This document shows, in pieces, positions 2,484-19,596 of a stretch of DNA of 64,000 bases. The stretch's first letter is position 1; each line of letters starts with the position of its first letter. Below the pieces are notes generated by a model that was given only the letters and a program-made list of their open reading frames with translations, was not told where the DNA came from and did not search any database. This DNA comes from a phage. Where the stretch lies: assembly GCA_036253495.1 (NCBI GenBank), contig GCA_036253495.1_4125.1; one strand, 5' to 3'. Position numbers and translations under genes: made by a program.

Positions 2484-2484
2484 T

Positions 2485-2826: not shown

Positions 2827-2836
2827 TGGAGTTCAA

Positions 2837-3679
2837 ATGTCAAACATTATCGTATTCAAAACTGTATCATTCAATAAAGATCTTTATTCTCATTCTTATG
2901 TGTCTTCCAATAATCTCATCATTGAGTTGACAAATGGGGCAACGTTGGCGGTAGAATTCGATTCTAGTCTTGAATCTAACGCTGCACTAAAAGAACTAGC
3001 AATGGTATTAAATGGTGAACCAGTAAACAAATCCAAACCAACTGATGGGTTGGATATGTTGGTCAATAAGATCCTAAATGGCAAATCTTCTGAAATTGTT
3101 GAACTTCTTAAAAATTGTACTGATAAAATCACTGAAACTGTTAGTACTGCAAAATCTAAGGCTGAAGATAAGCTTTATGAAGAAGCATTTAAAGTCGTGG
3201 GGGCCGCAGCAGAATATAAGTTAAATGGTATGATTAATAATCTTGACCAAGTGCTGTCTCATATGTTCACAAAAGAATATGAAACTGAAGAACCTGAATC
3301 CCAAGAACAACCTTCCAAAAAAGAAGATGTAAAATCTAAAGTGAAATCCGCATTTACTGGTGCTAAAAAGAAATTTGGTCTATCTGAAGATATCTTTGGA
3401 TATTCTGATACCACAGCACAAACCGACGATGATTCACAGTCAGATGATATTCTGATTGGTGATATGCTTGATCGTCAGTTGCGTGCTGAAATTTCAGCAT
3501 TCGTTGACAGTGTTGTTAGTTCTGAACGTGCACAAGATATGTTCGAAAGTATCAGTAAGAATTTTGGTGAAGAAGAATCGAAAGCTGCTATTGATGGATT
3601 TAAAAATCTAATTTATTCCGTTGCAGTGCAGCACCAAGATAAAACATTAGAATATGTGATTCGCAATTACTTTATGTAA
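2837..3679 (+). CDS. hypothetical acidic protein
   Basis: ATG at 2837 after GGAG; followed by bidirectional terminator. Confidence 0.55.
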   Translation: MSNIIVFKTVSFNKDLYSHSYVSSNNLIIELTNGATLAVEFDSSLESNAALKELAMVLNGEPVNKSKPTDGLDMLVNKILNGKSSEIVELLKNCTDKITETVSTAKSKAEDKLYEEAFKVVGAAAEYKLNGMINNLDQVLSHMFTKEYETEEPESQEQPSKKEDVKSKVKSAFTGAKKKFGLSEDIFGYSDTTAQTDDDSQSDDILIGDMLDRQLRAEISAFVDSVVSSERAQDMFESISKNFGEEESKAAIDGFKNLIYSVAVQHQDKTLEYVIRNYFM

Positions 3680-3685
3680 TGAGAA

Positions 3686-3717
3686 CGAAAAAGCCTCCAT
3701 ATGGAGGCTTTTTTTAT
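3686..3717. terminator. bidirectional Rho-independent terminator
   Basis: Hairpin AAGCCTCCATATGGAGGCTT flanked by A-run and T-run between convergent genes. Confidence 0.7.
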
Positions 3718-4871
3718 TGTTTGTCATAACCAATCACTACAATCTTAGCATCAAATGCTTCGGCAGAAGTAATTGTAACATTCTCATCATCATCAAGCTG
3801 AATTTCACATTGAACTGCATCATTGTTATTATCATATACTTGAACAAAAACAAATTCTTTTAAGTGTCCAGTACTGGATATATTAATTTCATACATTTCA
3901 CCATTGCGTGTCCATTCAGAAGAAGAGACATTTTGTACATATGGAGATGTTTGCAATGTACTACCCAATATACTTAGTTTTATAGGTGTATTATCATATA
4001 TTGTTACTGTAATATCACCAGTGGAGCTAACATTAATGCCAGCAGATACCAAATTATTATGATTATCATATACCTGAATAGCTAAGTTATTACCACGCCC
4101 ATGTACATCACCAGGGATTCTTGCACTATACACATCACCAGGCCCAGTACTGAATGTAGTTACTGATACAGTAGTGGTAAAGCCGTCATCATCACCAACA
4201 TCTAATATATTAAAATTAACGCTTTTTGTATTATAAAAATCAGACGTAAGAGTTATAGTTGCAGTTCCGGTTGACATAATTTCCGGTACTGTTATAATGA
4301 ATTCATCATTGACTATTGTACTCGTTGAATACTCGGACCCATCTGAAAATTTTACAGTAATTGTCATTCCTGTTGTGTTGATGGTTTGTCCAGCATTGAA
4401 CAGTTTACCCGATATTTCAGTATCCCCAACATGAACTGGATTAACTAAAATATTATCTATATCACGATCAATAATTGAACAAGTTGGTGTGTACATATCA
4501 AAAGTAACATCGGAGTTTCCAAATATCGTTTTGTGTAATTGGAATTTAGTTACAAACCCTGTTGGATCTGTAGGTTTCAATTGATTAGTGTATCCACGAA
4601 CAAAGAAAGTATTCTTTGCAATAACATCCAATAATTCATCATCGGATTTTTTATAGTTAAGTAAATTTCCTACCTTATCATAAGAAGTAATTTGTACGCG
4701 TCTATATATTTTGTTTGTTACAGGATCTATAATATCAAATAGTTTATAACTACGCTGTCTGTAAATTCTTATATTTTTTAATTTGGTTCCATCGATTAGT
4801 AAAGCACCATCCACGATATAACCACATTCACCGAACTTGTATTCTCCGGCATCAGCTATGGTTCTAGACAT
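3714..4871 (-). CDS. hypothetical S/T-rich protein (possible structural/adhesin-like)
   Basis: 385 aa minus-strand ORF, convergent with upstream plus genes. Confidence 0.6.
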   Translation of the reverse strand: MSRTIADAGEYKFGECGYIVDGALLIDGTKLKNIRIYRQRSYKLFDIIDPVTNKIYRRVQITSYDKVGNLLNYKKSDDELLDVIAKNTFFVRGYTNQLKPTDPTGFVTKFQLHKTIFGNSDVTFDMYTPTCSIIDRDIDNILVNPVHVGDTEISGKLFNAGQTINTTGMTITVKFSDGSEYSTSTIVNDEFIITVPEIMSTGTATITLTSDFYNTKSVNFNILDVGDDDGFTTTVSVTTFSTGPGDVYSARIPGDVHGRGNNLAIQVYDNHNNLVSAGINVSSTGDITVTIYDNTPIKLSILGSTLQTSPYVQNVSSSEWTRNGEMYEINISSTGHLKEFVFVQVYDNNNDAVQCEIQLDDDENVTITSAEAFDAKIVVIGYDKQ

Positions 4872-4992
4872 AAAACAAACCCCTCATTGTTGAAATGCTT
4901 ATAAAATATTTATGATAAGGAGGGTGAAAATCGGCCTTGACAGACCTGTATTTTTGAGTATAATGTACATTAATAGTGAAAAGGAGTATTTT

Positions 4993-5577
4993 ATGAATGT
5001 ATTAGAAAATCGTTTAATTGTTAAAAATGGCAAGATGACTGTGAAACTATACTCTGATGAAGCAGATTCTTTCATGGCGAAGGCAATCGAAAAGTCTGAG
5101 CGATATCAAGTTCTTGCACCTGAAAACAAATCACCTTATGGGTTTAATCACGCTCATAGTCATTTTGTTGGAATGGTTTGTGAACACGCATCGTTTGTAT
5201 TGTTCTCTGAAATTGAAGCCAGTACTGGTATTAAGTTAAACATTGATCCAGCATTCCAATGTGATGGACGTGATGGTGAATGTGACATTAAAGTAAATGG
5301 GTTGCGTATAGAAGTAAAAGGTATTAAGTATAAATCATGGAAAGACTTTGGTCCATGTGTCAGTACTCGACAATTGAAAAACATTCAGAAAAAAGCTGAT
5401 GTTATTCTGTGGGTCTTGTATAATGAGAAAAAACAAGAATTTACGTTTGAGGGATTCAATTACGTAAAAGACATTAGTTCGATTCCAGTAGTATTAACAG
5501 GTGTACCAGGTCGTCCATTAATTGAGAATCACCCAGTTATTAGTATTCTTAAGCCACTACAGGAGCTACCACTATGA
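4993..5577 (+). CDS. hypothetical protein; weak PD-(D/E)xK-like motif
   Basis: AAGGAG RBS before ATG 4993; motif D..GECDIKV..IEVKG. Confidence 0.5.
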   Translation: MNVLENRLIVKNGKMTVKLYSDEADSFMAKAIEKSERYQVLAPENKSPYGFNHAHSHFVGMVCEHASFVLFSEIEASTGIKLNIDPAFQCDGRDGECDIKVNGLRIEVKGIKYKSWKDFGPCVSTRQLKNIQKKADVILWVLYNEKKQEFTFEGFNYVKDISSIPVVLTGVPGRPLIENHPVISILKPLQELPL

Positions 5578-5813
5578 TTAAATGTAATATTGAAGTAAAT
5601 GAATACACTACTAATCAATATAACGGTGAGAAAGAGTTTTCATTTAGTACAGTACAACATGTATTGAATTTCCCAGTACTTCCATCTATTGGTTCAGTAC
5701 TGACAATCACAAATACGTATGATACCCAGTACGAGATCCTTGATATTGAGTACAGAGCAAATCTTAGTTCCAGTGCAGATGTTGAAATCTATATCATCGT
5801 AGAAGAGGTATAA
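5574..5813 (+). CDS. hypothetical protein
   Basis: 79 aa, ATGA overlap. Confidence 0.5.
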   Translation: MIKCNIEVNEYTTNQYNGEKEFSFSTVQHVLNFPVLPSIGSVLTITNTYDTQYEILDIEYRANLSSSADVEIYIIVEEV

Positions 5814-6139
5814 TGATGTTCAAGAACTTCATTGCTATAGTAGCAGTACTATTCTTAACTACGTGCTTCATCAATCCAGTTTATGCTGATAAAGTGCGAT
5901 GGAAGGATGTTAAATCACCATCCTATTGTGCTGGTTATGCTAAGGTAAAGGATGAACAACACAATAAGCAGTACTATAAGGATATGTTTTCATTTTACAA
6001 TTCAATGATTTCAGAAACTGACTTGATGGCAAAGAGAGTTGATCGTGAAGATTTCCTTCAAGGCTATGACATGAATGATGATGAAAAAACATTAGAATGC
6101 GTAGAAGTTTTTAATTACATACGAGGGTTTGATGAATGA
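5813..6139 (+). CDS. putative secreted protein
   Basis: 108 aa with N-terminal signal-like hydrophobic segment. Confidence 0.55.
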   Translation: MMFKNFIAIVAVLFLTTCFINPVYADKVRWKDVKSPSYCAGYAKVKDEQHNKQYYKDMFSFYNSMISETDLMAKRVDREDFLQGYDMNDDEKTLECVEVFNYIRGFDE

Positions 6140-6600
6140 CAGCACTGATATGTATTAGTCTATTTGTTATTGTATATCAATTGATTTTTTCTATCATTGA
6201 TGATGTTGAACATATTGCATATAGTAAATCTATATCTAAGTTTGAGGGCAATCTTGCTTTTTTTAAATCATTATTTTGGACATATTTGTTACCCAAAGAA
6301 TTTTTAGTTGTGTCTTCATATTATTCATCATATAATCTAAACTATAGTATTAGTGATTTAGCAAACATTGAACTGGTTTGTCGAAATGCTATCAACAATG
6401 TTAATGGATACAAAGTTGTGATGAAAAATCCAGGGGTGATCCATTTTATAGAACCAGGTAACAGCAGTTCTGAACTAAAACTTAGTGATATGTATCTTTC
6501 ATATAACTCAATGGAAAGATTCGTTTTACCACCGTACTATATTCGTTTGATCCTAAAAGCACTACAAAATAAAACTACAGATGTTCTTGACAGGCTATAG
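6136..6600 (+). CDS. hypothetical protein
   Basis: 154 aa, ATGA overlap. Confidence 0.5.
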   Translation: MTALICISLFVIVYQLIFSIIDDVEHIAYSKSISKFEGNLAFFKSLFWTYLLPKEFLVVSSYYSSYNLNYSISDLANIELVCRNAINNVNGYKVVMKNPGVIHFIEPGNSSSELKLSDMYLSYNSMERFVLPPYYIRLILKALQNKTTDVLDRL

Positions 6601-6664
6601 GTGAAGTGATAAGATAGTACCAATGAAACACAACACTAATTTATAATCTAATGAGGAACCAATC

Positions 6665-7123
6665 ATGACAGTATTAGCTACCCAATTTAAACGAAATACA
6701 GAGCAACGTGAAGGTTACTTGAGTATCAGTGAAGTGGTTGAAGGAAACTTCAAACAATACATTTTCAATGCTTCTATTAAATTAAAAGCGACAAAATCTG
6801 ATAAAGATCGTGGCTTTACTAAGTGGGTGGCTTACTGGGAAGATTCACCTGTTGCAATTGAAATGACAGTAATGACAACAGTACTGGAAACTGGATACAT
6901 TAAAGCGACCATTGTAGATAAACAAGTACGAACCATTGATGAGATTGGTCCTTACCCAGCACGAAATTCTAAAGTATTTGGTAACTTGATTGATGGTAAG
7001 TTTATGTTGGATAAAGATGCACAAGTTTATGTGATGGATAAGGTAGAAAAAGCGGCAGCTAAAAAAGAAGTTGTAAATCAAAGTCAAATTGACTTAATCA
7101 AACAAGCATGGGGTTTAAAATGA
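6665..7123 (+). CDS. hypothetical protein
   Basis: 152 aa, GAGGAA RBS. Confidence 0.6.
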   Translation: MTVLATQFKRNTEQREGYLSISEVVEGNFKQYIFNASIKLKATKSDKDRGFTKWVAYWEDSPVAIEMTVMTTVLETGYIKATIVDKQVRTIDEIGPYPARNSKVFGNLIDGKFMLDKDAQVYVMDKVEKAAAKKEVVNQSQIDLIKQAWGLK

Positions 7124-7563
7124 TTTCTATCAAATCCGTAAAATACATTTATCTTCTTGGTATTTTGTCTTGGTTTGCATTACCAGTACTGGACTTCTTT
7201 CAAGTCACAGATGGTAACAAGTACCAAACAGTAGTTTCAGTGTTTTCACTTTTATTTTTTCTTGGTGTCTTTTTTTCTAGTGCTTTTATGATCTTTAGTG
7301 ATGAAGACGATGCAAGACGTTTCTATGCAGTAGTTTTTGAATTTAAACACTATGGGTGGTATCTAACACTCCCGTTCATTCCATGTATCATTTATGCTTT
7401 CAACTATGAATACTATTCATATATGGGCATGGCAATGATTTTGTTTATTATCCTTGAACGTATGCGAACGGTTCAAAACAAGTTTGCACAGGAGTACGAA
7501 GACATGCAAACTGCGGAAGAGATACGTAGGAAGTCAATTCCAACAACAAAGGTAGATTTATAA
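7120..7563 (+). CDS. small membrane protein
   Basis: ATGA overlap at 7120; multiple hydrophobic helices. Confidence 0.55.
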   Translation: MISIKSVKYIYLLGILSWFALPVLDFFQVTDGNKYQTVVSVFSLLFFLGVFFSSAFMIFSDEDDARRFYAVVFEFKHYGWYLTLPFIPCIIYAFNYEYYSYMGMAMILFIILERMRTVQNKFAQEYEDMQTAEEIRRKSIPTTKVDL

Positions 7564-7988
7564 TGAGAACATACTATAAACTATTACTCGCTCCCTTTTC
7601 ATTTGGTATTTTATGTCTAATCGACGTATTATGCACAAAGTATTCGATTAGTACAGTACTTAATCCAGCGTGGTTTACTATTGCTATTGTTGGATACTGT
7701 CTGTGTGCGGGTATGGCTGCTCTTATTACGTTACTAACAATTGCAATGGATAATGACGAGAAAGATAAAAACAGCTTTGCGAATGACTTTGGGTGGAAAA
7801 CGATCAGTTCAGTAACTATTGTACCATTTGCATTACTGACAGTTTATTTCATTCAAATGGGTGAGATCATTCCTGGTGTTGCATCATCAATACTTTTGTT
7901 AATGACAATAGTTGTTCGTTCACGACAAAATTCAATAATCCAAGAGTTTCTTGAACGAGAGGCAAGGGAAGGAACAAAAACATCTTGA
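7563..7988 (+). CDS. small membrane protein
   Basis: 141 aa hydrophobic ORF. Confidence 0.55.
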   Translation: MRTYYKLLLAPFSFGILCLIDVLCTKYSISTVLNPAWFTIAIVGYCLCAGMAALITLLTIAMDNDEKDKNSFANDFGWKTISSVTIVPFALLTVYFIQMGEIIPGVASSILLLMTIVVRSRQNSIIQEFLEREAREGTKTS

Positions 7989-8013
7989 CATAAAATGTGT
8001 TAAGGGATATAAT
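7985..8013 (+). promoter_or_regulatory. sigma70-like promoter
   Basis: TTGACA, 17 bp spacer, TATAAT; upstream of 8043 gene with AAGGAGG RBS. Confidence 0.6.
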
Positions 8014-8042
8014 TATTTTATCAAAACAAAGGAGGGACACAT

Positions 8043-8294
8043 ATGAATCTCGATGTGGTGAAATCATTAACTGAAGCTTTACAGAAAAATGAAGTTCAAT
8101 GTCAAGAACTACGTGACACTATTAAGGTTGAATACGCTCGACTTCAAGGTATGTTACAAGAATCAGAATGGGTAGTTACTAAAAGCATCGAAGGTATCTA
8201 CAAAGATATCGAATCAATGTTCAATAAGAAAAGTAAGATTGAATCAGATTCTTTTAACAAACGTAAAGAACTAAATGCAGTTTTAGGTATCTAA
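8043..8294 (+). CDS. hypothetical protein
   Basis: 83 aa, strong RBS. Confidence 0.55.
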   Translation: MNLDVVKSLTEALQKNEVQCQELRDTIKVEYARLQGMLQESEWVVTKSIEGIYKDIESMFNKKSKIESDSFNKRKELNAVLGI

Positions 8295-8298
8295 GTAC

Positions 8299-8327
8299 TT
8301 GACAGTACTGAAATATAGGAGTACAAT
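8299..8327 (+). promoter_or_regulatory. sigma70-like promoter
   Basis: TTGACA, 17 bp spacer, TACAAT; GGAGTACAATGTACTCC palindrome overlaps -10. Confidence 0.5.
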
Positions 8328-8367
8328 GTACTCCTACTTTAATTGAAAACCAAAAAGGAAAAACACA

Positions 8368-8643
8368 ATGAACTCTATTCTAGTAGCAGTAAACCTAGTT
8401 GCTTCTCCGTCTTTTGATTTTAAAAAAGTTATTTCTAATAATCTTAAAAACATTTGCCCTGATACTGAACTTACTTTTTGTGTATTCGATTCTGAAAAAG
8501 TTACTAAAGTAGATCTTAATTATCTCATGAACGATGTTAAGAGTGTTCAAGGTAAAACTAATTTAGATGTAGTACGTTCTGTTGCTGACGACTACGATGA
8601 TGCTCTGATCATTTCTGAATCTTTTGAAGAGGGTGTACTGTGA
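8368..8643 (+). CDS. hypothetical protein
   Basis: 91 aa ORF. Confidence 0.55.
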   Translation: MNSILVAVNLVASPSFDFKKVISNNLKNICPDTELTFCVFDSEKVTKVDLNYLMNDVKSVQGKTNLDVVRSVADDYDDALIISESFEEGVL

Positions 8644-9107
8644 ATAAATTAGTTCAATGGGTAGAAAAAACTAAGGTCTATCCACCGTCTGAATTGTTTT
8701 TCCAAGCAGACTCTAAGCAAGCCAAGGCAGAAAAACGCGTTGTAGCCATTTGTGAAGACCTTTATAAACTTGAAGTACATACTCTTAGTGATATGCATAC
8801 TGCGTTCACAGTGCTTGCCAACGCAGCTAAACGCGATATTCATAACATGAAGATGAAGTACATTGAAGAACTATGCGGTGTGCTTGCATTCCATGTTGAT
8901 TATTCGGTTAATGCATTAGATGCTATGCATAAGAAAGATCCTATCCTCCAAGCTTATTACAAAGGATGGTCCGTAAAAGCTAAAGAGCTAAAGGATGAAA
9001 TCAAAGCATTACTTATTGAATCATTCCCTGATATTGATAAGGCAATGTTACTTTCGGAGATGCAGTACTATTATGATTCTGAAAAAGATAAGGTACTTTC
9101 TAAGTAA
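8640..9107 (+). CDS. hypothetical protein
   Basis: 155 aa, GTG start overlapping upstream stop. Confidence 0.55.
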   Translation: MNKLVQWVEKTKVYPPSELFFQADSKQAKAEKRVVAICEDLYKLEVHTLSDMHTAFTVLANAAKRDIHNMKMKYIEELCGVLAFHVDYSVNALDAMHKKDPILQAYYKGWSVKAKELKDEIKALLIESFPDIDKAMLLSEMQYYYDSEKDKVLSK

Positions 9108-9504
9108 ACTAATTCTAAGTAAGCCCAAAGTACAAATACAAGCTCAAGAGGCTTTTGATATATACGAGGCATTGAATAATTGTAATTATGATTTACTCAA
9201 TAAGCATTGTAGATCCAAAGTAGCTGTTGATTTGATTTGTGAACAAATGACAGTTAGTAACTTTTCAAAAAATTACAACATTCACTATTTTGGATTTGAT
9301 GGTTCACCTACAAAATTTGATTATAATTATGCTTATGCAGAATTGGTTAAGAGTAAGGAAAACATCAAAATAACTGAATTCATTGCCTTGTATTTTTTCA
9401 CAAAACTTGGTATAGTAACTGGATGTAAAGATCCCTTCCCATTTGATAAGGTATTGAAAGGAAGAGAACTTGATATATATTCCGCATTCTTAGATAAGGT
9501 GTAG
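9073..9504 (+). CDS. hypothetical protein (start uncertain)
   Basis: Long frame from 8995 overlaps upstream gene; first ATG after a weak RBS at 9073. Confidence 0.3.
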   Translation: MILKKIRYFLSKLILSKPKVQIQAQEAFDIYEALNNCNYDLLNKHCRSKVAVDLICEQMTVSNFSKNYNIHYFGFDGSPTKFDYNYAYAELVKSKENIKITEFIALYFFTKLGIVTGCKDPFPFDKVLKGRELDIYSAFLDKV

Positions 9505-9505
9505 A

Positions 9506-10003
9506 ATGACTACAGTATATGTTGACAAGCGTGTTGGATTATTGCTCACTGATTCACGAGTAACAACCACTACTGAGAGGTACTTTCTCGGATTATTCCC
9601 GTTAAAACCAAAAAAACAATATGGTGTAGTTACTCAAAAATCATTATACATTCATGATCGTCTGTTTAGTGCCGCAGGTTCAGTGAATGAAATCAATAAA
9701 GTATTGATGTATTTGATATATGGTGATATAGTACTGCCCAGTAGAAAAGAGAACTGCCATTGTGTCTTGTTGTCCAAAGATTATTGTATTCACTTAGGAA
9801 CAAAGAACGGGAAGTTTTTTAAGTACCTTGAGTTCATGCATGAGGAATATGTATTCTTCATGGGAAGTGGTGGAGAGTACATGGTTGATGCTGCTGTGCA
9901 TGAGAACCAAGACACACTACTTCAAAAAATATTCAGTACTTTCAAAGAGGTAAAAAACCACGATGAATATACTGACGACAATATTAATGTATACCAATTT
10001 TGA
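9506..10003 (+). CDS. hypothetical protein
   Basis: 165 aa ORF. Confidence 0.55.
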   Translation: MTTVYVDKRVGLLLTDSRVTTTTERYFLGLFPLKPKKQYGVVTQKSLYIHDRLFSAAGSVNEINKVLMYLIYGDIVLPSRKENCHCVLLSKDYCIHLGTKNGKFFKYLEFMHEEYVFFMGSGGEYMVDAAVHENQDTLLQKIFSTFKEVKNHDEYTDDNINVYQF

Positions 10004-10024
10004 TTTTTTCATTAGGAGAAGTAA

Positions 10025-10987
10025 GTGAAGAAACTAGACTTAAACGCAATTTCCGAAGAAGTACTGGATGAATGTTTTGCGAATGAAGAAGTCAATCCAT
10101 TGGAAGCAATTGAACCATCAGAAGTTATTGAAGATGATATTCCACATAAAGTTCGTAGTAAAAGTAACATTAGTCTCAAGCGTCCAGTAGGTGTGACTAA
10201 TGAATCCATCATCGAAGAGATTCGTGCTGGAATTAATGTAAAAAAGAACACTGACCTATTACTTCGTTATAACTATGGTATGATCGTTGATGTTGCTTCA
10301 AAGTGTACATGTTATATTCCGTTTGAAGATAAAATTGCATATGGTGTAGAAGGTTTTATGCGAGCACTTAAAACCTTTGATCTTAGTAAGAATGTCAAAT
10401 TCATTACATATGCAACAACGTCCGTTTATATGACTATGTATAATGAAAGTTCAGATGCAAATTACATGGTGTACTTACCACGTTATATGAGCGTTCATAA
10501 CATCCAAGTACGTCGATTTAATGAATCATATCAACGTGAACACGGTAAGCGACCTACACCAGAATTAATCTCTGAGAGTACTGGTATCGAGCTTCAGCAC
10601 GTTAAGAACTGTTTGTTATACCAGAATGCATATACGACTCTTGATGCACAACTGGGTTCAGATTCAGACGGAACCCTTGGGGATATTCTGAGTTCATCTG
10701 CTCGTGATTATAACCTTAATGTTGATAGCATTTGTAATCCATTACGTTATGCAATCACAGAAATCATTGACGAATTGAGTACTAAAGAACGAGAAATTAT
10801 CATGCGTGTTCATGGTCTGGGGGATTACAAAGCAGAAACCCTTCGTGAAATTTCTGATAATGGATATGTTGATGATAAAGGAAACATTGTTAAGTCCCGT
10901 TCATCTGTGCACCGAAAATATAGTGAAGCTATTCAAAAGCTTAAAAAAATAGTACTTGAAAAAGGGTACGAATACGAAGATTTCTAA
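10025..10987 (+). CDS. sigma-70 family RNA polymerase sigma factor
   Basis: Region 2 signature EGFMRALKTFD..KFITYATTSVYMTM matches the conserved sigma70 FD...G..FSTYA pattern; C-terminal region-4-like segment; GTG start after AGGAGA. Confidence 0.8.
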   Translation: MKKLDLNAISEEVLDECFANEEVNPLEAIEPSEVIEDDIPHKVRSKSNISLKRPVGVTNESIIEEIRAGINVKKNTDLLLRYNYGMIVDVASKCTCYIPFEDKIAYGVEGFMRALKTFDLSKNVKFITYATTSVYMTMYNESSDANYMVYLPRYMSVHNIQVRRFNESYQREHGKRPTPELISESTGIELQHVKNCLLYQNAYTTLDAQLGSDSDGTLGDILSSSARDYNLNVDSICNPLRYAITEIIDELSTKEREIIMRVHGLGDYKAETLREISDNGYVDDKGNIVKSRSSVHRKYSEAIQKLKKIVLEKGYEYEDF

Positions 10988-10994
10988 AGAACAA

Positions 10995-11021
10995 GGGTTG
11001 ACTTAGGTCAGCCCTTTTTTT
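10995..11021 (+). terminator. Rho-independent terminator
   Basis: GGGTTGACTTAGGTCAGCCC hairpin followed by T7 run. Confidence 0.7.
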
Positions 11022-11545
11022 ATGGGACAAAATGGATGTTCATGATACAATGATATTGTACAATTCTGTTGGCATGGATGACATGAACCTGATCCACTCG
11101 AAAATGTAGAGGGCAGTTGAGCAGTCCAGCAGTGCGAAGTGCAGAAGAAACCCGTCAGATGTGGGCATATTATGAACCCCTCACGGCAATGCGGCACTAT
11201 AAAGAACCACGTTAGGATGGCTGGTGGTTCCTCGATAGACATATAAGGATAACACCTTACAAATTATCTAAGGGAGAGTTATCAAATTTTGTACAGGAAA
11301 GTTGCGTCCAAAATTTGAGTACTCACATTAAGTATTTGATTGCATAGATACTTAATGAAGATACACTATGTTTAAAAGTGTAGACCGTCATATGAAACTG
11401 AAGTAGAGAGAAACAGGATGACCCGCTTTCGTACTCATTAAGAGTAATCTTCAATGCAATAGCTCTGATACCATCAGCGTCAAATTCCCCTCCCAGCGGG
11501 GGGAAGAAAAATCCCTTCCTCAAATCCCGTCAATATTAAAAGTCC

Positions 11546-11574
11546 TTGACAGTTATTAATCATTCGCGTAGAAT
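11546..11574 (+). promoter_or_regulatory. sigma70-like promoter
   Basis: TTGACA, 17 bp spacer, TAGAAT. Confidence 0.5.
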
Positions 11575-11638
11575 ACGTAGTATTAGAAGCGAACAGACAT
11601 CTCGAAGAGATGGATGACTAACTATTAAGGAACATTCA

Positions 11639-11848
11639 ATGAATACTACAATCTTTTTAGTAGTTGCTCTTTCAATGCAATCCGGTGTACAAATTACCCC
11701 TATGAATTCATTAAACCAATGTTTTTCTGTACGTGATAGTACATACGAACAAGTAAACAAAAATTCTTGGATGACAGTTAGTGAAGAACAAATGTGGTGT
11801 TACAAAAGTGATATTAAAGCGAAATTTATTGTAGGACAAACTCAATGA
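11639..11848 (+). CDS. hypothetical small protein
   Basis: 69 aa ORF. Confidence 0.45.
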   Translation: MNTTIFLVVALSMQSGVQITPMNSLNQCFSVRDSTYEQVNKNSWMTVSEEQMWCYKSDIKAKFIVGQTQ

Positions 11849-12039
11849 TTTATCGAGTGAGGTTTGAAGTTTGTAAAATTGTTTTCAATAGCAAAGGTGA
11901 AGCCTCACTCGATGAAACTCTGCACATATATAATCTCCAATTTAGGGCAAAAACAGAAGCTGATGCATTAGTAAACATGTTTAATTTCAACCATAGGTGC
12001 GGGTATCATTTAGTAAGAGTTATAGAGGTTAAAAAGTAA
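11845..12039 (+). CDS. hypothetical small protein
   Basis: 64 aa, ATGA overlap. Confidence 0.45.
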   Translation: MIYRVRFEVCKIVFNSKGEASLDETLHIYNLQFRAKTEADALVNMFNFNHRCGYHLVRVIEVKK

Positions 12040-12069
12040 TCACCGAATGCAGTGAAGAGGAAATCTAAA

Positions 12070-12864
12070 ATGAGTACTATCGATGAATTGATTCGACGGA
12101 ATTCAAAATATTACCAACCATCAGAAATTGTGGATAATATTACTAAATCTGAGTTTGGACCTAATACTCGCAAACTCATTCATGTAATGTCTCGTGACGG
12201 CTTTAAATGTGATTGTTGTGGTGAATCCAATGTAGTATTCACTTTACATAAGCACAGTACTAAAGAACGTTATAAATTCAGACCTTATGTACTTAAAGGG
12301 AAACGTCTTGTACGCATGACGTTAGACCATAATGTACTGGACTGTCTCCAGGGTGGTAATGATAAAGAGAACATGACTGCACTGTGTGAGGATTGTAATG
12401 CCTTACGCCAGCATAAGTTCGCAGAGTACAGCGAGTTTAAGTACTGGTATCATAATGCAGACCGTTCAATTGAGCCTAATGTAAACTACTGCTTCATTGA
12501 GTACATCAAGAATGCAAAAGATACATACATTCTTAAATCCATGTCTCCGATTACAGTGTTTCCTGAGAATCTATTCAGTACTATGGAGCGTGATTTCAAG
12601 CGTGGTATCATCAATGCATTCAAGCACTTAGACAAAGGTATCAAGCACTTTGATGTTGAATGTTTAAATTCAGGTATGAATCATTTAGTACAAATTTACA
12701 TGAAATCGTTTATAGGTATTGACAGTGCACGACTACCAGTATATAATTACTTTATTGAAAGCGTAGAAGGTGAATCACTTCGTGATTATGGTGAAAGATT
12801 TAATAAGAAAGTTTTCACTGCAATAGCAAATGAGATTCATTACTATAAACCATATGTAATTTAA
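12070..12864 (+). CDS. HNH endonuclease (putative homing endonuclease)
   Basis: CDCCG ... LDHNVLDCLQGGNDKENMTALCEDCN HNH-type motif; ATG 12070 after GAGGA. Confidence 0.65.
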   Translation: MSTIDELIRRNSKYYQPSEIVDNITKSEFGPNTRKLIHVMSRDGFKCDCCGESNVVFTLHKHSTKERYKFRPYVLKGKRLVRMTLDHNVLDCLQGGNDKENMTALCEDCNALRQHKFAEYSEFKYWYHNADRSIEPNVNYCFIEYIKNAKDTYILKSMSPITVFPENLFSTMERDFKRGIINAFKHLDKGIKHFDVECLNSGMNHLVQIYMKSFIGIDSARLPVYNYFIESVEGESLRDYGERFNKKVFTAIANEIHYYKPYVI

Positions 12865-12878
12865 TTAGAGGAACTATC

Positions 12879-13046
12879 ATGCAAATCATTATCTTAATCG
12901 TTGGTATCGGTTTGGGCATCTATGGACATTCATGGGTAACTGAGAAGTTTCCTGACACCCGTCCAGATTACTGTACAACTAAAACTGAAAGTACTGAAAG
13001 TATTGGAACTAAGATCGATAAAGTAATCGAGGTGATTAAACAATGA
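12879..13046 (+). CDS. small membrane peptide
   Basis: 55 aa, hydrophobic N-terminus, GAGGAA RBS; hand-translated. Confidence 0.4.
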   Translation: MQIIILIVGIGLGIYGHSWVTEKFPDTRPDYCTTKTESTESIGTKIDKVIEVIKQ

Positions 13047-13134
13047 TGAAACTTAATATATTTCTGGTTGTATTCACTGTCGTTGTTATCGGTATTGGTG
13101 CACTGGCATATATCCAACCTTAAAGGAAAAATAA

Positions 13135-13335
13135 ATGTTTAAATCGAATACAAATGTTGGTAAGCAGGTTCAATTACTTGAAGACGTATCCACTATGAGT
13201 GGAACCTTCACTAAAGGTCACATCATGACTATTATTGCCGAAACATCCCGTGGCTGGGACTTGGAAGATGCTGATGGTAATCGCATCCTTGAGGCTGGCT
13301 TCTATGGTCATCGTGAATATAAAATCATTGATTAA
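13135..13335 (+). CDS. hypothetical small protein
   Basis: 66 aa ORF. Confidence 0.5.
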   Translation: MFKSNTNVGKQVQLLEDVSTMSGTFTKGHIMTIIAETSRGWDLEDADGNRILEAGFYGHREYKIID

Positions 13336-13433
13336 GGATGCAAACGTGACTTTAGAGATTATCGTTGGTATTGTTAGTTTTAGTCATCTGTGTTGGTTGG
13401 TTTGGGTATATGATGATTTTTAGTGATTAATAC

Positions 13434-13461
13434 TTGACAGAAGATATCAGTACTGTATAAT
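13434..13461 (+). promoter_or_regulatory. sigma70-like promoter
   Basis: TTGACA, 16 bp spacer, TATAAT with upstream CAGTACTG. Confidence 0.55.
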
Positions 13462-13506
13462 GTTTATATCAAACGAAATCCACTTTAACAAATGATAGGA
13501 AATATT

Positions 13507-13785
13507 ATGTCTTTTACCAAAGAAGAACGTGACCTTATTAAAAAAGCAATCTGGTTTTATGCTAATGAAGGGGAGTGCGATGAAGAAAAAGCACGTGAAC
13601 TGTGTAATATCCTTGAGCAGAAACAAGAACTGAAAGTGTATCGTATCCGTGTTTTGGATGAAGGGGATCGTATTGTCCTAGCTGAAACAAAAGAAGAAGC
13701 AGAACAAATCTTCACTGATAAAAACGAAAATCCACATTGGATGGAAGAAGTCTGTGAAGTAAAAAAAGGTACTTATATCGATTGA
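13507..13785 (+). CDS. hypothetical protein
   Basis: Track ORF from 13492; ATG 13507 chosen. Confidence 0.5.
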   Translation: MSFTKEERDLIKKAIWFYANEGECDEEKARELCNILEQKQELKVYRIRVLDEGDRIVLAETKEEAEQIFTDKNENPHWMEEVCEVKKGTYID

Positions 13786-13810
13786 CTGTACTGAATAATA
13801 GCAGTATAAT
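13782..13810 (+). promoter_or_regulatory. sigma70-like promoter
   Basis: TTGACT, 17 bp spacer, TATAAT. Confidence 0.55.
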
Positions 13811-13816
13811 GTTTAT

Positions 13817-13882
13817 ATCAAAGGGAATGCAGTGAAAGGAAAGACAGCATAATCGTACTCGTCACTGCGTTCCCGCCCTTTT
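13817..13882 (+). ncRNA. candidate short leader RNA or attenuator
   Basis: GGGAATGCAGTGA ... TCACTGCGTTCCC stem followed by GCCCTTTT, between promoter and the RBS of the 13904 gene. Confidence 0.3.
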
Positions 13883-13903
13883 AAATTAAATGAGGAATTA
13901 ACT

Positions 13904-14212
13904 ATGTTTCAAACTAACACTCAAGGTTTTGTAATCATCGATTTGAATCAAAACAGCGGTTATTGGATGAAACCTACTGACGCATGTATGCAGTTTGATT
14001 TTTTAGGTTACAGGATTAGTGTAAGTACTGGTGCTTCTGTACTGCGTGGTGGTTGTATCGTTGAACATCTGGTAACTGATCCAGAAGGTCGTGAGTATGA
14101 AATCGCAGGTTCAGTACAAGATGCCATTATGTTTGTATGTCAGCGTGAAATGAATGGTTCGAATTCAAATGCACTGACTCATGCTCTTTCTCAAGAAGTG
14201 GAGGTTCGTTAA
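13904..14212 (+). CDS. hypothetical protein
   Basis: 102 aa, GAGGAA RBS. Confidence 0.55.
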   Translation: MFQTNTQGFVIIDLNQNSGYWMKPTDACMQFDFLGYRISVSTGASVLRGGCIVEHLVTDPEGREYEIAGSVQDAIMFVCQREMNGSNSNALTHALSQEVEVR

Positions 14213-14457
14213 TGAAATATATTGTAGCAGTACTAATTGCTTTCCTACTCACTGCATGTGATGCTTCAACAAAAGAACGAACTGGTGAGTTTGTTTTACC
14301 AACTGAACTCAAAGAAGCAGGGTGTAAGATTTATCGTATGCAACAGGAAGGTGCAGGTGCAACTTTGTACACTGTTTACTGTCCTAATGCAAACACTACT
14401 ACGTCTTATATGAGTGGTAAAGTTCGCGTGGATACATCTGTGGTTCATGGAGAATAA
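14212..14457 (+). CDS. putative lipoprotein
   Basis: Signal peptide with LLTAC lipobox-like site. Confidence 0.55.
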   Translation: MKYIVAVLIAFLLTACDASTKERTGEFVLPTELKEAGCKIYRMQQEGAGATLYTVYCPNANTTTSYMSGKVRVDTSVVHGE

Positions 14458-14459
14458 CA

Positions 14460-14828
14460 ATGAGTCTTGATACTACTCGTTCGGCAAATATCTTGGAACG
14501 TTTGAATGATGAAGAATATCTTGCTAATGCAAAATATCAGCTTGAAAAACTCATTCGAAATGTAAAATATGTTGATATCACTACACAGCTTCCACTAGAT
14601 GAATATCACAAGTTAAACGAAGATATTGTATATCACCCAAATGAAATTTGGATTGAGTGGGAATCATGGACTCATTCGGTTCTCCGTATCGAAGGATATT
14701 GTGTGAAATATGAAAGTTCACCAGGTGATTTTACAAAAAAACTGTCGATATTGTGCACTGACACACATGAAATAGTTGAGGTGAATTTGAATCATATGAA
14801 GGGTTGCCGTTGGGGAGATGTTAAATGA
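14460..14828 (+). CDS. hypothetical protein
   Basis: 122 aa ORF. Confidence 0.55.
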   Translation: MSLDTTRSANILERLNDEEYLANAKYQLEKLIRNVKYVDITTQLPLDEYHKLNEDIVYHPNEIWIEWESWTHSVLRIEGYCVKYESSPGDFTKKLSILCTDTHEIVEVNLNHMKGCRWGDVK

Positions 14829-15100
14829 TTAAAAAACTCTTGACGGTGTTTGTTGTATTCTGTACAATGTTTCTTACAGCATGTAATGATGACGGCAGGT
14901 TCAGTGCAAAAGACTTAGTTCGTCAGGATTGTACATTCACAGGTAAGTCTTTTATTAACGAATATGAAATATGTACACAAGCAGGACGTATTTGTGGGGG
15001 TTGGGAAAAACGTCAGGAGCGTCTGTATGTATATGATTGTCCAGGACACCTCAACAAAGTACTAAGCACACACAAACTTGTTTATGATAAGGTTGAATAA
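14825..15100 (+). CDS. putative lipoprotein
   Basis: Signal peptide with FLTAC lipobox-like site. Confidence 0.55.
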   Translation: MIKKLLTVFVVFCTMFLTACNDDGRFSAKDLVRQDCTFTGKSFINEYEICTQAGRICGGWEKRQERLYVYDCPGHLNKVLSTHKLVYDKVE

Positions 15101-15309
15101 TGACTACCAATGAAATGATGCAGGTTATTTGGAATAAAGGTTGTGATATTAAAATCACTAGTACTGATGTTCGTGTATTCAAAACTGAATACATGGAATA
15201 CTTGGACCTTGATACTTATAATAATATTGTATCAATTGAACACAAAGGTGCAGTACTGGAAACAATTGACGTTGTTCTCAAGAAAGCAACGGATTTATTG
15301 GGAGCATAA
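15100..15309 (+). CDS. hypothetical small protein
   Basis: 69 aa ORF. Confidence 0.5.
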   Translation: MTTNEMMQVIWNKGCDIKITSTDVRVFKTEYMEYLDLDTYNNIVSIEHKGAVLETIDVVLKKATDLLGA

Positions 15310-15310
15310 G

Positions 15311-15457
15311 GTGAACAATAAAGAATGGGAAGAGTACCGCAAGAAGTGCCGAGAGTTTGATAAAGAACTCACTGGTACTGTGAACGCAGTAATGTGGGTA
15401 TCTGCAATAATTGCAGTACTGGGACTGTTTGCAGTTATCATTAATAAGTTTTTTTGA
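15311..15457 (+). CDS. small membrane peptide
   Basis: GTG after GGAG; C-terminal TM helix. Confidence 0.4.
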   Translation: MNNKEWEEYRKKCREFDKELTGTVNAVMWVSAIIAVLGLFAVIINKFF

Positions 15458-15466
15458 GGAATACAC

Positions 15467-15667
15467 ATGTTTACTTTATATCTAGCCGTAGTACTAACAA
15501 ATGGTGAAATCACACGTACATTCGGTGACGGTGTATATAAAACACCTGAGCAGTGTTATTCTGCGACACACTGGCCTCGTGATGCTGGTGAAGAAACTCG
15601 TACCGAATACAAATGTATGAAGGTCAAAGGTGACTTTGTTAACCTTAAGGTCATTGAGGTGAAGTAG
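15467..15667 (+). CDS. hypothetical small protein
   Basis: 66 aa ORF. Confidence 0.5.
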   Translation: MFTLYLAVVLTNGEITRTFGDGVYKTPEQCYSATHWPRDAGEETRTEYKCMKVKGDFVNLKVIEVK

Positions 15668-16173
15668 TGAATCTTAGTACTGATAAGTTTGTAAAGTTCA
15701 TAGAGTTTATCAACTTCAATGAGAGCTACAATGGTACGTACAATACTATGAATATTGTATCTGATAAAGTATTTGATAGTACAATGTTCTATTTGTATGA
15801 TACAAACGGTGATAAGCTGTGTGATGTTACATTCGGTATTGGTGATCTTTTTGAATCTGCGGTTTATCTATCTAAACCAACGGTGCGTGATACATATGAA
15901 ATTCACTTTCATAATAGACCGAATCACAAAAACATTGTAGAATATGATATACCATCATCACACGAACTGTTCATTGTAGATTACAGTACTGAAGAGGGTG
16001 TATTTCAAAGTTCATTGCTATACAACTTTGAACTACACGATCCTGATATTCCTAAAGTACTGGCAATTTCCAATAAGGTATGTGAATTGCCATATAACAT
16101 ATACATGTCAGTTCCTGGTAAAAGAGTAGGTAATTTCTGTAAAGCCTTTGACATACAAGCGGATGATAAATGA
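15667..16173 (+). CDS. hypothetical protein
   Basis: 168 aa ORF. Confidence 0.55.
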   Translation: MNLSTDKFVKFIEFINFNESYNGTYNTMNIVSDKVFDSTMFYLYDTNGDKLCDVTFGIGDLFESAVYLSKPTVRDTYEIHFHNRPNHKNIVEYDIPSSHELFIVDYSTEEGVFQSSLLYNFELHDPDIPKVLAISNKVCELPYNIYMSVPGKRVGNFCKAFDIQADDK

Positions 16174-16394
16174 ACAGATACGTGATTGAATACGTGGGTA
16201 TATCTGAATTTGATAACATTCGTGGCTATGAAAAGGTCATGAGTGAACGCACGATATATGTTAGGGGTCGCGATGAAGCCCATGTTCTCTCTTTACTGTT
16301 AAATGACCTGACAAAGTTCAATACAACAAAGACACAACGTTATATTGAAACAATTAAATCTATTAAACTTTTAGACGAGGATGATGAAGAATGA
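16170..16394 (+). CDS. hypothetical small protein
   Basis: 74 aa, ATGA overlap. Confidence 0.5.
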   Translation: MNRYVIEYVGISEFDNIRGYEKVMSERTIYVRGRDEAHVLSLLLNDLTKFNTTKTQRYIETIKSIKLLDEDDEE

Positions 16395-16603
16395 ATTTAT
16401 ATCTAGTAGAAGGTACAGTGCAGGTTTTCCGTTTTGATGGTGATCGTGGTATGCGTTTCTCACATGTTGAAGAATTTAAATTTGTCGTACATGCAGAAGG
16501 TGAGTACGAAGCAGAGATTAAAGTATCTGAATCCTTTGATAAGAAAGAAACAGTAGATGTACAGTATCAGCAACTACAATTTAAAGTGTGGCCTACGCTT
16601 TAA
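16391..16603 (+). CDS. hypothetical small protein
   Basis: 70 aa, ATGA overlap. Confidence 0.5.
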   Translation: MNLYLVEGTVQVFRFDGDRGMRFSHVEEFKFVVHAEGEYEAEIKVSESFDKKETVDVQYQQLQFKVWPTL

Positions 16604-16607
16604 AAAC

Positions 16608-16636
16608 TTGACACGCATGTAAAAAGCGAGTATTAT
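16608..16636 (+). promoter_or_regulatory. sigma70-like promoter
   Basis: TTGACA, 17 bp spacer, TATTAT. Confidence 0.5.
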
Positions 16637-16667
16637 ATCTGTATTATGAATTAACTGAGGAATACGT

Positions 16668-17333
16668 ATGCTCGCCAATTTAAGTTACATTATTAGTGAT
16701 GATATGGTACAAAGTCGTGGTATGTATCTTGAGAAAGTTCCATACGATAGCGATGGTATCAAAGGAACTTTATACGAAAGTCGTTTTGACAGAAAGCATC
16801 CATTCTGGGAAAAGGCTAATCTAACGGAAGAAGATAGTAATCGTTTATTTTGTGCTGTGCAGACGCCTACACCTGGTATATTAGCGGGTTATGGTATAGA
16901 TAAAGTCATTAACTTTATGACAGACTATGAAGTTATTAAAAGTCTGCAATATATTAATACGAACAATGGTGAGTTCTATAATTCTGATGATTTTCTTGCT
17001 ATGTGTAGTGCTTCATATGAGAGTGAATTATTGCCAAGTGGTAGACCATTCCCATTGTCAACACATTGTAATTCCCCTTACGGTGTAGCTGACAACTTAC
17101 AGCAGATCCTTAAGAAACATAAGAATGTTCTTACATCTGAAATGGAAGTTGTTATTGGATTTCATCCAGTGTACAAGGAAGATCAACCTGAACATGGTGG
17201 GTGGCGTTGGCATAAGCACGGCACATACATTGGTACTCATAAGAAAAAGCATGAGTACTTGTATGATGAAGAAGGTATTGATGTTGTTTATTGTTACGAA
17301 CTAATCCCAGTAAAGAAAAAGGAAACACTATAA
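16668..17333 (+). CDS. hypothetical protein
   Basis: 221 aa, GAGGAA RBS. Confidence 0.6.
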   Translation: MLANLSYIISDDMVQSRGMYLEKVPYDSDGIKGTLYESRFDRKHPFWEKANLTEEDSNRLFCAVQTPTPGILAGYGIDKVINFMTDYEVIKSLQYINTNNGEFYNSDDFLAMCSASYESELLPSGRPFPLSTHCNSPYGVADNLQQILKKHKNVLTSEMEVVIGFHPVYKEDQPEHGGWRWHKHGTYIGTHKKKHEYLYDEEGIDVVYCYELIPVKKKETL

Positions 17334-17575
17334 TGTTAATTTTATACGTTGTACTGATTTTATTAGTTAACTTTTCTCCAACTATTTTAACTTTAGTATG
17401 GGGTAAATTTTATGATGCTGTAAAAGTATTTCTCTTGAATACTGCATGGGTATTGGTAAGTCTGACTCTTTATTGGTCTACTGATTGGATGATGATTGTG
17501 AGTCATATACTACTATATATTTCATTCCTAATGTTGTTCCAAGAAAAAGAAGTACTTGACAAACTTGAAGGTTAG
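17333..17575 (+). CDS. small membrane protein
   Basis: TAATG overlap; two hydrophobic helices. Confidence 0.5.
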   Translation: MLILYVVLILLVNFSPTILTLVWGKFYDAVKVFLLNTAWVLVSLTLYWSTDWMMIVSHILLYISFLMLFQEKEVLDKLEG

Positions 17576-17584
17576 ACCTATAAT
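17556..17584 (+). promoter_or_regulatory. sigma70-like promoter
   Basis: TTGACA, 17 bp spacer, TATAAT. Confidence 0.55.
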
Positions 17585-17607
17585 ATCCTTCTACTAAGGG
17601 GGATATT

Positions 17608-17868
17608 ATGGCAGTAGGGTTTGGTTCACCAGATAACCACCAAGAAACGATACAAGCAACTATTGATAATGCTATTGACTTTGCTCGCTCAAATCTGTAT
17701 AGTGGTGAGTCTGAAGAGTACTGCATCGACTGTGACTGTGAGATACCAGAGAAGCGGAGGTTAGTACTGAAGGGTGTAAAACGATGTGTTCAGTGTCAAT
17801 CAAAGGTTGACAAGGTATATCAAGAGCGTTATAATAGACGTGGAAGTAAAGACAGCCAACTCCGTTAA
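17608..17868 (+). CDS. TraR/DksA-like C4 zinc-finger protein
   Basis: CIDCDCEIP ... RCVQC four-cysteine arrangement in an 86-aa protein. Confidence 0.5.
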   Translation: MAVGFGSPDNHQETIQATIDNAIDFARSNLYSGESEEYCIDCDCEIPEKRRLVLKGVKRCVQCQSKVDKVYQERYNRRGSKDSQLR

Positions 17869-17888
17869 ATTAATATGAGGAACTACTA

Positions 17889-18221: not shown

Positions 18222-18312
18222 TAACCAAGTACTCATATAAAATACAGAATAGTATTAAATACTTGTGTACTAGTTAAGTACGCAAGTATTTTTTTATTAT
18301 TTTGAGGTTAAT

Positions 18313-18678: not shown

Positions 18679-18692
18679 TTTAAGGTAAATCT

Positions 18693-19417: not shown

Positions 19418-19425
19418 TTAAAAAA

Positions 19426-19458
19426 GGTTGACTAACGTCAGCCTTTTTTGTTATACTG
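19426..19458 (+). terminator. terminator hairpin overlapping promoter -35
   Basis: GGTTGACTAACGTCAGCC hairpin, T-run, then TATACT. Confidence 0.6.
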
Positions 19459-19466
19459 ATCCCAAT

Positions 19467-19592: not shown

Positions 19593-19596
19593 ACAT

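Follow-up and report, generated by a model that had tools for sequence, protein, structure and literature searches.

In T4-like systems, late promoters of the TAAATA type are read by gp55. The T4 middle promoters (MotA/AsiA) and the SPO1 cascade (gp28, followed by gp33/34) obey an established logic, in which an early phage factor serves a middle promoter class that has a non-host -35 region and includes the gene for the late factor. Rak2-like ("group 2") jumbo phages encode no RNA polymerase and have to reprogram that of the host; an RpoD-like sigma factor is a hallmark of these phages. For phages CBB and GAP32, three promoter classes have been reported (PMC5259590). The present analysis concerns a window of 64,000 nt, the whole stretch of DNA analysed (GCA_036253495.1, contig GCA_036253495.1_4125.1), and within it the gene for a sigma-70 family sigma factor (nt 10025-10987, plus strand) and a cassette of genes for RCC1-like beta-propeller proteins (nt 36562-46463, minus strand). 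A sequence-only reading had linked the two by proposing that the sigma factor redirects host polymerase to an AT-rich motif preceding the propeller genes. As given, this finding is of modest interest: the sigma factor is real but known, the motif is real but misassigned, and the pairing of the two is unlikely to be correct. The window, circularly permuted, belongs to an Asteriusvirus (Rak2-like) jumbo coliphage and aligned with Escherichia phage A4 (ON286972.1, 355,528 bp) at nt 309,912-355,528 followed by 1-17,395, with 93-99.5% identity; the whole A4 genome served as proxy for the phage regions beyond the window.

The sigma gene, an ortholog of A4_181, started with GTG, possessed a Shine-Dalgarno sequence AGGAG, read from the sequence, 6 nt upstream (nt 10014-10018, plus strand), and was the last gene of a tightly packed early operon closed by a strong intrinsic terminator, a hairpin with a T-run located directly after the sigma stop codon (nt 10993-11016, plus strand). 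A host-type early promoter, TTGACA-17-TATAAT with 12/12 matches, was located at the head of the operon (nt 7985-8013, plus strand) and at the same site in A4, and a second early promoter, TTGACA-17-TACAAT (nt 8299-8327, plus strand), lay upstream of the genes at nt 8368-10987. Since the operon is driven by consensus host sigma-70 promoters, the sigma gene is likely to be expressed early.

The predicted 320-aa product is a genuine member of the sigma-70 family possessing regions 2, 3, and 4. The strings VEGFMRALKTFD...KFITYATTSVYMTMY from which family membership had been claimed were present, and significant sigma-family matches, whose absence was to refute the sigma assignment, were obtained in the profile searches. 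Pfam Sigma70_r3 (PF04539) matched above its gathering score (2.9e-11, 43.7 bits, cut-off 25.3), Sigma70_r2 (PF04542) fell 0.6 bit under it (5.1e-5, 23.4 bits, cut-off 24), and Sigma70_r4 (PF04545) remained below it (2.3e-3), with a match confined to the first half of the domain. NCBIfam RpoD_Cterm matched over aa 79-283 (2.3e-26), and PHROG_351, annotated as RNA polymerase sigma factor, gave 2.4e-50. In a phmmer search against PDB, aa 74-278 aligned to SigA, RpoD, and RpoS chains, the best being SigA (3e-18). An AlphaFold2 model built with 21 homologs showed sigma2, sigma3, and sigma4 domains with predicted local distance difference test (pLDDT) values of 80-89 and a predicted template modelling (pTM) score of 0.36, and the top 50 Foldseek matches listed from PDB were all sigmaS, sigmaA, or sigma70 chains (best 5ipl_F, 7e-12, probability 1.0). 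The whole-chain template modelling (TM) score against PDB matches was low (about 0.4), as is to be expected of a flexible model with several domains.

The factor is not new, having been annotated and discussed in the literature. Its sequence was 99.7% identical (about one residue different) to that of A4_181, a sigma-70 family sigma factor according to its GenBank annotation, and orthologs labelled as sigma factors occur in dozens of relatives, including 121Q gp167, PBECO4 gp356, phAPEC6, RaK2 ORF244, GAP32, and CBB_513; identities with the PBECO4, RaK2, and CBB proteins were 73%, 42%, and 34%, respectively. These proteins belong to the same family and share the early small-gene position and the region 2-3-4 architecture, with no substantive difference. 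No experimental characterisation of this RpoD-like phage sigma family was found in the literature searched. Two further genes carry sigma labels in A4. The A4_187 ortholog (about nt 13507-13785, plus strand; 92 aa), to which GenBank gives the name sigma-70 family RNA polymerase sigma factor, had no Pfam or NCBIfam sigma match and matched only a PHROG of unknown function, and its sigma annotation looks unsupported. A4_529 bears the annotation putative sigma 54.

As for protein anatomy, region 2 (aa 81-141; nt 10265-10447) was delimited by Pfam and by alignment to E. coli sigma70, whose residue numbering is used here (alignment reference identical to PDB 4jk1 residues 375-613), and region 3 (aa 161-225; nt 10505-10699) by PF04539. 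Region 4 (aa 248-316; nt 10766-10972) was delimited by the partial Pfam match, alignments, and the AlphaFold2 model (pLDDT 82-88). The helix-turn-helix that had been read in the C-terminal region was confirmed, its second helix being recovered by both alignment and AlphaFold2. A 9-aa insertion, SDNGYVDDK, in the region-4.2 turn (aa 277-285; nt 10853-10879) splits this helix-turn-helix, which explains why Pfam matched its first half only. In the model, the insertion and the residues following it formed a beta-hairpin (aa 281-289), and helices were placed at aa 273-279 and 292-312 (pLDDT 84-87), with the alignment covering E. coli residues 572-599. The N-terminus (aa 1-48) was acidic and modelled with low confidence.

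Resemblance to bacterial group 1 and group 2 sigma factors (E. coli sigma70 and sigmaS) lies in the fold, in the sigma2-sigma3-sigma4 order, and in shared residues, that is, P453, R584 of region 4.2, and the residues of the pocket that accepts the flipped -11 adenine (F419, K426, F427, and Y430). The phage protein differs from them in the region-4.2 insertion, in having no Pfam match to region 1.1 or 1.2, both of which bacterial homologs possess, and in nine substitutions: the tryptophan dyad was lost (W433T and W434S), the -12 readers (Q437M and T440Y) and extended -10 readers (H455Y and E458V) were altered, and region 4.2 carried E585S, R588H, and Q589R. Two class assignments were rejected. 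The presence of region 3 excludes an extracytoplasmic function (ECF, group 4) sigma factor, and TIGR02937 scored 40.1 bits against a cut-off of 42.9. A primary (group 1) sigma factor or RpoD ortholog is contradicted by the absence of a region 1.1/1.2 match and by substitution at W433, W434, Q437, T440, H455, E458, E585, and R588; all NCBIfam RpoD and RpoS equivalog scores were far under their cut-offs (e.g., 92.8 versus 354). The "rpoD" labels given in GenBank to some relatives are therefore loose. The recognition helix, SRSSVHRKY, belongs to a pattern, SRSSxHRKY, strongly conserved across the phage family, and such conservation of the region-4.2 helix implies a -35-like target other than TTGACA.

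Promoter classes were derived by unbiased 7-mer enrichment in 264 A4 upstream regions, followed by -10-anchored listings. Three classes are present in the genome, and they match those known from CBB and GAP32; the assignment of factors to classes, given below, is inferred. The early class, found in small-gene regions, consisted of TTGACA or CTTGCA, a spacer of N16-18, and (TG)TATAAT, in agreement with the TTGACA-type promoters already noted before the small genes. The middle class, G(G/A)GACA-N13-TGnTA(T/C)AAT, was matched strictly at 16 plus-strand sites of A4 and at none on the minus strand, and preceded genes for a gp55-like factor, ssDNA-binding protein, primase, exonuclease, topoisomerase II, and a ClpA-like protein. 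The late class was represented by ATAAATA, the top upstream 7-mer (17-fold enriched). The genes that it precedes, at a distance of 15-61 nt and in most cases 21-57 nt, encode the major capsid protein, the scaffold, the protease, the sheath, the baseplate wedge, and the long tail fibre. As a separate observation on regulatory DNA, AGTACT-containing elements recurred, e.g., in window nt 52000-64000 (A4 6000-25000) and A4 329000-339000, examples being early promoters with AAAAAGTACTTGCA...AGTACTGTATAAT and terminator stems with GCCAGTACT/AGTACTGGC; in several early promoters the hairpin of the terminator before them contained the -35 TTGAC in its 5' arm, e.g., GGTTGACTTCGGTCAGCC-T-run-TATAAT.

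The motif of the propeller cassette, AAATATAATATAATGAATAAAGGAGG (26 nt), was present in seven minus-strand copies in the window, with none expected from 100 shuffles. It had been described as invariant; the motif is real and nearly invariant, since four of the seven copies carried one mismatch, always at the same position. Exact copies were located at nt 37919-37944, 40429-40454, and 41669-41694, copies with A to G at nt 39170-39195, 42888-42913, and 45211-45236, and a copy with A to T, preceding the first cassette gene, at nt 46432-46457. Seven RCC1-like beta-propeller genes were preceded by the motif, which was missing from the gene at nt 42955-44064, situated only 10 nt after its upstream neighbour, and from the genes downstream of nt 36431.

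Each motif copy was part of a module of about 110 nt, ordered as upstream stop codon, hairpin (GCCAGTACT-loop-AGTACTGGC), T-run, (G/T)ATTAAATATA(A/G/T)TATAATGAATAAAGGAGG, a spacer of 4-5 nt, and ATG followed by MLPFVRMLDYGN. In functional terms the layout reads terminator hairpin, T-run, TTAAATA, N4, ATA, Shine-Dalgarno sequence, ATG, and the conserved N-terminal peptide; the module of the first exact copy, for example, spanned about nt 37876-37978, with the hairpin at 37978-37960 and ATG at 37914. The hairpins of the next five copies, in order of position, were at nt 39232-39208, 40490-40468, 41731-41707, 42948-42930, and 45270-45251, respectively, and the copy at 46432-46457 retained the T-run with no upstream hairpin. 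Terminator-like sites numbered 14 in the cassette versus 4.0 +/- 2.3 in shuffles. Counted from the ATG, conserved positions ran from about -75 to +38, with column identity of 84-100% from about -50 to +38 and a peak over the Shine-Dalgarno sequence, the ATG, and the first 12 codons (91-100%), whereas the gene bodies were old paralogs with a mean amino-acid identity of 24%. The module was observed in all Asteriusvirus genomes, in 7-15 copies each, and also in more distant relatives.

A near-invariant N-terminus, M(L/I)PFxRxxxYGN, is shared by the RCC1-like propeller proteins, and N-termini of this type were also observed on kelch-like and laminin-G-like virion structural proteins of CBB; a common role of the peptide in virion attachment or targeting is probable. 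The cassette thereby recalls the T4 internal-protein (IP) gene cluster, known for its conserved 5' end and capsid-targeting sequence, and as a lead both can be described as tandem divergent virion genes with a near-identical upstream region and N-terminal peptide. The capsid-targeting sequence of T4 and the propeller peptide, MLPFxRxxxYGN, are unrelated.

With a terminator at the end of each cassette gene, the short motif-bearing interval must contain a promoter, so that the idea of a promoter at the motif was sound. A scan for sigma-70-type promoters gave 54 sites in the cassette versus 57.6 +/- 7.4 in shuffles, that is, no excess, and the lone overlap with a motif copy was a weak 9/12 match, CTGGCA-17-TATAGT (nt 39215-39187), made through the variable first hexamer; the scan thus bears out the earlier remark that no -35 is recognisable there. 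Outside the cassette, neither the 26-mer (up to 4 mismatches) nor its 14-nt 5' half (up to 1 mismatch) was found anywhere in the 355-kb A4 genome. This confinement rejects the motif as a genome-wide promoter class; the 26-nt sequence probably supplies the promoter and leader of a repeated unit and does not form a class by itself.

The core of the motif looks like a first-position variant of the phage -10-only late promoter, (A/N)TAAATA. Among single-base variants of ATAAATA in upstream regions outside the cassette, enrichment was confined to changes of the first position (CTAAATA 9.7-fold, TTAAATA 4.7-fold, and GTAAATA 4.6-fold), all others reaching 2.6-fold at most. These first-position variants lay 25-35 nt before structural genes, and the propeller TTAAATA, which agrees with the phage consensus at 6/7 positions and differs at the only position that tolerates variants genome-wide, lay 25 nt before the ATG, within the 15-61 nt range of the late class. 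It comprises a -10-only core similar to TATAAATA with no -35, and TAAATA is common to about 40 structural-gene upstream regions.

Depletion of the hexamer elsewhere points in the same direction. TAAATA occurred 19 times in the window versus 123 +/- 11 expected (6.5-fold depleted), 7 of the 19 being within the motif, and 165 times in A4 versus 632 expected, a ratio of 0.26 that was the lowest of the 64 A/T-only hexamers; 44% of the A4 copies were located within 65 nt upstream of a gene. By contrast, TATAAT was not depleted in A4 (observed/expected 1.12). Other copies in the window include late-class cores ATAAATA at nt 4907-4912 (minus strand), 35 nt upstream of a structural-protein gene (nt 3714-4871), and at nt 22473-22478 (plus strand), 46 nt upstream of the gene at nt 22525-24063, and a TAAATA at nt 36377-36382 (minus strand), just downstream of the cassette and about 33 nt upstream of the start (about nt 36344) of the A4_237 ortholog. 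Four lineages (this phage with phAPEC6, Munch, EJP2, and CBB) shared the hairpin, the T-run, TAAATA-N4-AT(A/G), the Shine-Dalgarno sequence, and the N-terminal peptide. The leader sequence varied among them, with AATATT at the TATAAT position in CBB. Since TAAATA is kept across the four lineages while spacer and leader differ, selection appears to act on TAAATA specifically. A late promoter of CBB, Porf_206, reads CTAAATATAATATA (PMC5259590, Table S7). RCC1-like proteins have been detected in phAPEC6 virions by mass spectrometry (PMC7247149); for the phAPEC6 cassette examined, these comprised six proteins, four encoded with a module of their own and two co-transcribed with the upstream gene.

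By homology, the propeller late promoter would be read by a gp55-family protein, the ortholog of A4_588, rather than by the RpoD-like sigma factor. A4_588, whose ortholog lies outside the window, matched phrog_12791 (1e-151) and phrog_234, annotated as late sigma (3e-17), and gave tblastn matches to cyanophage gp55. Identity of the gp55-like protein among genera was 72-78%, which parallels the constancy of ATAAATA, whereas the RpoD-like sigma factor was only 33-42% identical across the same phages. Likeness to T4 late transcription, with gp55 and TATAAATA, thus comprises the TAAATA core, the lack of a -35, the position before virion genes, and a phage-encoded gp55-family protein; a likeness to the T4 late promoter had already been noted for CBB and GAP32 (PMC5259590). 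There are differences: compared with T4 TATAAATA, the phage consensus is ATAAATA with a free upstream base, and the propeller copies are TTAAATA; compared with T4 gp55, the phage protein is 279 aa long, with an extra N-terminal half.

Several points weigh against this assignment. All seven propeller copies had TTAAATA where the consensus is ATAAATA. The motif is overlapped by a perfect TATAAT, kept in three of the four lineages, so that a dual or different promoter is possible. T4-type late transcription, moreover, also requires gp33 and the sliding clamp. No homolog of gp33 or gp45 was found in CBB (PMC5259590); a gp33 ortholog has been reported in group 2 phages (PMC7824862).

Recognition of the motif by the RpoD-like sigma factor itself, through a TATAAT-like element without a -35, is improbable. 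Such recognition would fit the invariant TATAAT, the missing -35, the terminators flanking each gene, which place the promoter inside the module, and the retained -11 adenine pocket. However, the full motif occurred only in the cassette (7 copies in 355 kb), the cross-genus conserved part was TAAATA-N4-ATA, the late-class signature, whose TAAATA is shared with the structural genes and is of a T4-like type read by gp55, for which the phage has a family member, and CBB had AATATT in place of TATAAT. In addition, the strongly conserved region-4.2 helix implies a -35-like target, but nothing was conserved at -35 of the motif, where the hexamer at middle-class spacing was TTTCTT, whereas GRGACA-N13-TGnTAYAAT does have such an element. 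The redirection of polymerase to the propeller motif by this sigma factor was therefore not supported.

It is also unlikely that host sigma-70 holoenzyme reads TATAAT, aided by the upstream T-rich tract, either as the sole promoter or overlapping a late promoter as in T4 tandem promoters. The -10 hexamer was perfect in 7/7 copies and was TATAAT or TATGAT in EJP2 and Munch, and the T-run was kept even in the hairpin-less copy; yet neither a -35 nor a TG extension accompanied it, a start 7 nt after TATAAT would leave a leader of only about 9-10 nt beginning at the Shine-Dalgarno sequence, TATAAT was not special in the genome, unlike TAAATA, and the products are virion proteins. Very unlikely is the notion that the motif is no promoter but a 5' module homogenised by gene conversion, or a recombination cassette like the T4 IP 5' ends, with read-through transcription: the greatest conservation did lie in the translation start and first codons over divergent bodies, and two cassette genes had no module and are therefore regarded as co-transcribed with their upstream neighbours, but hairpin-plus-T-run terminators preceded 6/7 motif copies, against read-through, and TAAATA was kept in four lineages while spacer and leader differed.

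The best candidate target of the RpoD-like sigma factor is the middle class, since no other class has a conserved -35-like element unlike the host consensus; we put this pairing at slightly less than an even chance. The same architecture was observed with GAGA(C/T)A in EJP2 (9 sites in 50 kb) and, with TG(A/G)AAC, in CBB, where it precedes the gp55-like gene CBB_244 (PMC5259590, Table S6), so that a middle promoter precedes the gp55-like gene in both A4 and CBB. Comparison of region-4.2 helix residues with -35 bases across A4, EJP2, RaK2, and CBB was suggestive, with four lineages only. Against the pairing, the middle-class -10 is a textbook host extended -10, TGnTATAAT, and the phage sigma has lost W433, W434, Q437, T440, H455, and E458; host sigma-70, alone or with an appropriator, could therefore read this class.

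Taken jointly, an early RpoD-like sigma factor, a middle-class target, and a gp55-read late propeller promoter in a three-step cascade form the best explanation, one that we consider somewhat more probable than its alternatives combined. Host sigma-70 would read the early promoters, by which the RpoD-like sigma factor would be made early; this factor, with its re-specified region-4.2 helix, would direct host core polymerase to the middle promoters, which lie before replication genes, before the gene for the gp55-like factor, and before four non-coding RNA paralogs; the gp55-like sigma factor would then read late (A/N)TAAATA promoters, those of the propeller cassette included. A more specific version is possible but doubtful, namely that the RpoD-like protein is a dedicated middle-phase factor of a three-sigma cascade, reading GRGACA by means of its remodelled region 4.2 (the SRSSxHRKY helix and the beta-hairpin), with a regulon that includes an RNA family of about 445 nt with four paralogs, confined to Rak2-like jumbo phages as far as seen. 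In its logic the cascade would resemble that of SPO1 and the switch from middle to late transcription in T4. It would differ from T4 middle transcription in that the candidate is a full-length sigma factor comprising regions 2, 3, and 4, where T4 uses an activator with an anti-sigma factor, and compared with the promoters of SPO1 gp28 the middle -10 is host-like.

The candidate non-coding RNA was located directly after the sigma terminator, where a middle-class promoter, GGGACA-N13-TGATACAAT (nt 11024-11051, plus strand), reads into an ORF-free region. The RNA region covers nt 11024-11535, with a conserved core of about 445 nt at nt 11089-11532 (plus strand), a candidate structured RNA. Three paralogs at A4 nt 65148-65670, 125725-126345, and 205569-206165 (plus strand) bring the number to four per genome with the sigma-adjacent copy, and each of the four in A4 started right after a middle-class promoter otherwise without a gene to serve. 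The RNA region was about 97-100% identical over most of its length among this phage, PBECO4, and Ecwhy_1 (about 94% overall), compared with only 73% and 61% identity for the adjoining sigma proteins of PBECO4 and Ecwhy_1, respectively. By blastn, 3-5 copies were found in each of 71 Rak2-like phage records, mostly in unannotated gaps and with about 70% identity across genera. A consensus structure from an 11-sequence alignment contained 72 base pairs, 42 with compensatory changes; paired cells amounted to 94.7%, versus 77.2 +/- 1.0 in shuffles (0/500 reached the observed value) and 39-46% with slid partners, and the covariation score was 0.46 versus 0.06-0.10 in slid controls.

An IMG/VR scan yielded 32 further homologs, 30 of them near full-length; contigs with listed sizes ranged from 15 to 378 kb, roughly half exceeding 150 kb. 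A lineage-appropriate middle-class promoter was observed 30-78 nt upstream in 23 of the 29 copies with enough upstream sequence, and 3 more had near-variants. In Rfam 15, the best E-value for the ORF-free region was 0.13, and nothing reached a gathering score in the 150 kb holding three paralogs. Four PA5oct non-coding RNAs (ncRNAs) have been defined by RNA-seq, three of which were compared: nhmmer --max with E up to 10 detected no homology to ncRNA001, 002, or 004. No description of the family was found in the literature. The sigma-adjacent RNA and its paralogs look like a new family of RNAs, with strong covariation support.

A few features of the phage bear on neither regulator. An HNH endonuclease gene (nt 12052-12864, plus strand; 270 aa; phrog_35175, 2e-148) was extra relative to A4 at the same place and is probably a homing-endonuclease insertion. 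The tetranucleotide GCGC was absent both from the window (43 expected) and from the 355-kb A4 genome (214 expected), and GGCC and CCGG were depleted about 2.5-fold in the window and the A4 genome, which suggests strong restriction-site avoidance. Beyond the window, the A4 annotation splits the large terminase subunit (nt 230273-232584) into two CDSs with a gap of about 275 nt between them, which may reflect an intron or a frameshift.

The RNA family is a separate lead and probably more interesting than the sigma finding itself. For these phages, with three or four candidate promoter classes and at least two sigma-like factors, the assignment of sigma factors to promoters matters: the propeller cassette would move into the late, gp55-type regulon, and GRGACA-N13-TGnTAYAAT would become the class to pair with the RpoD-like sigma factor.

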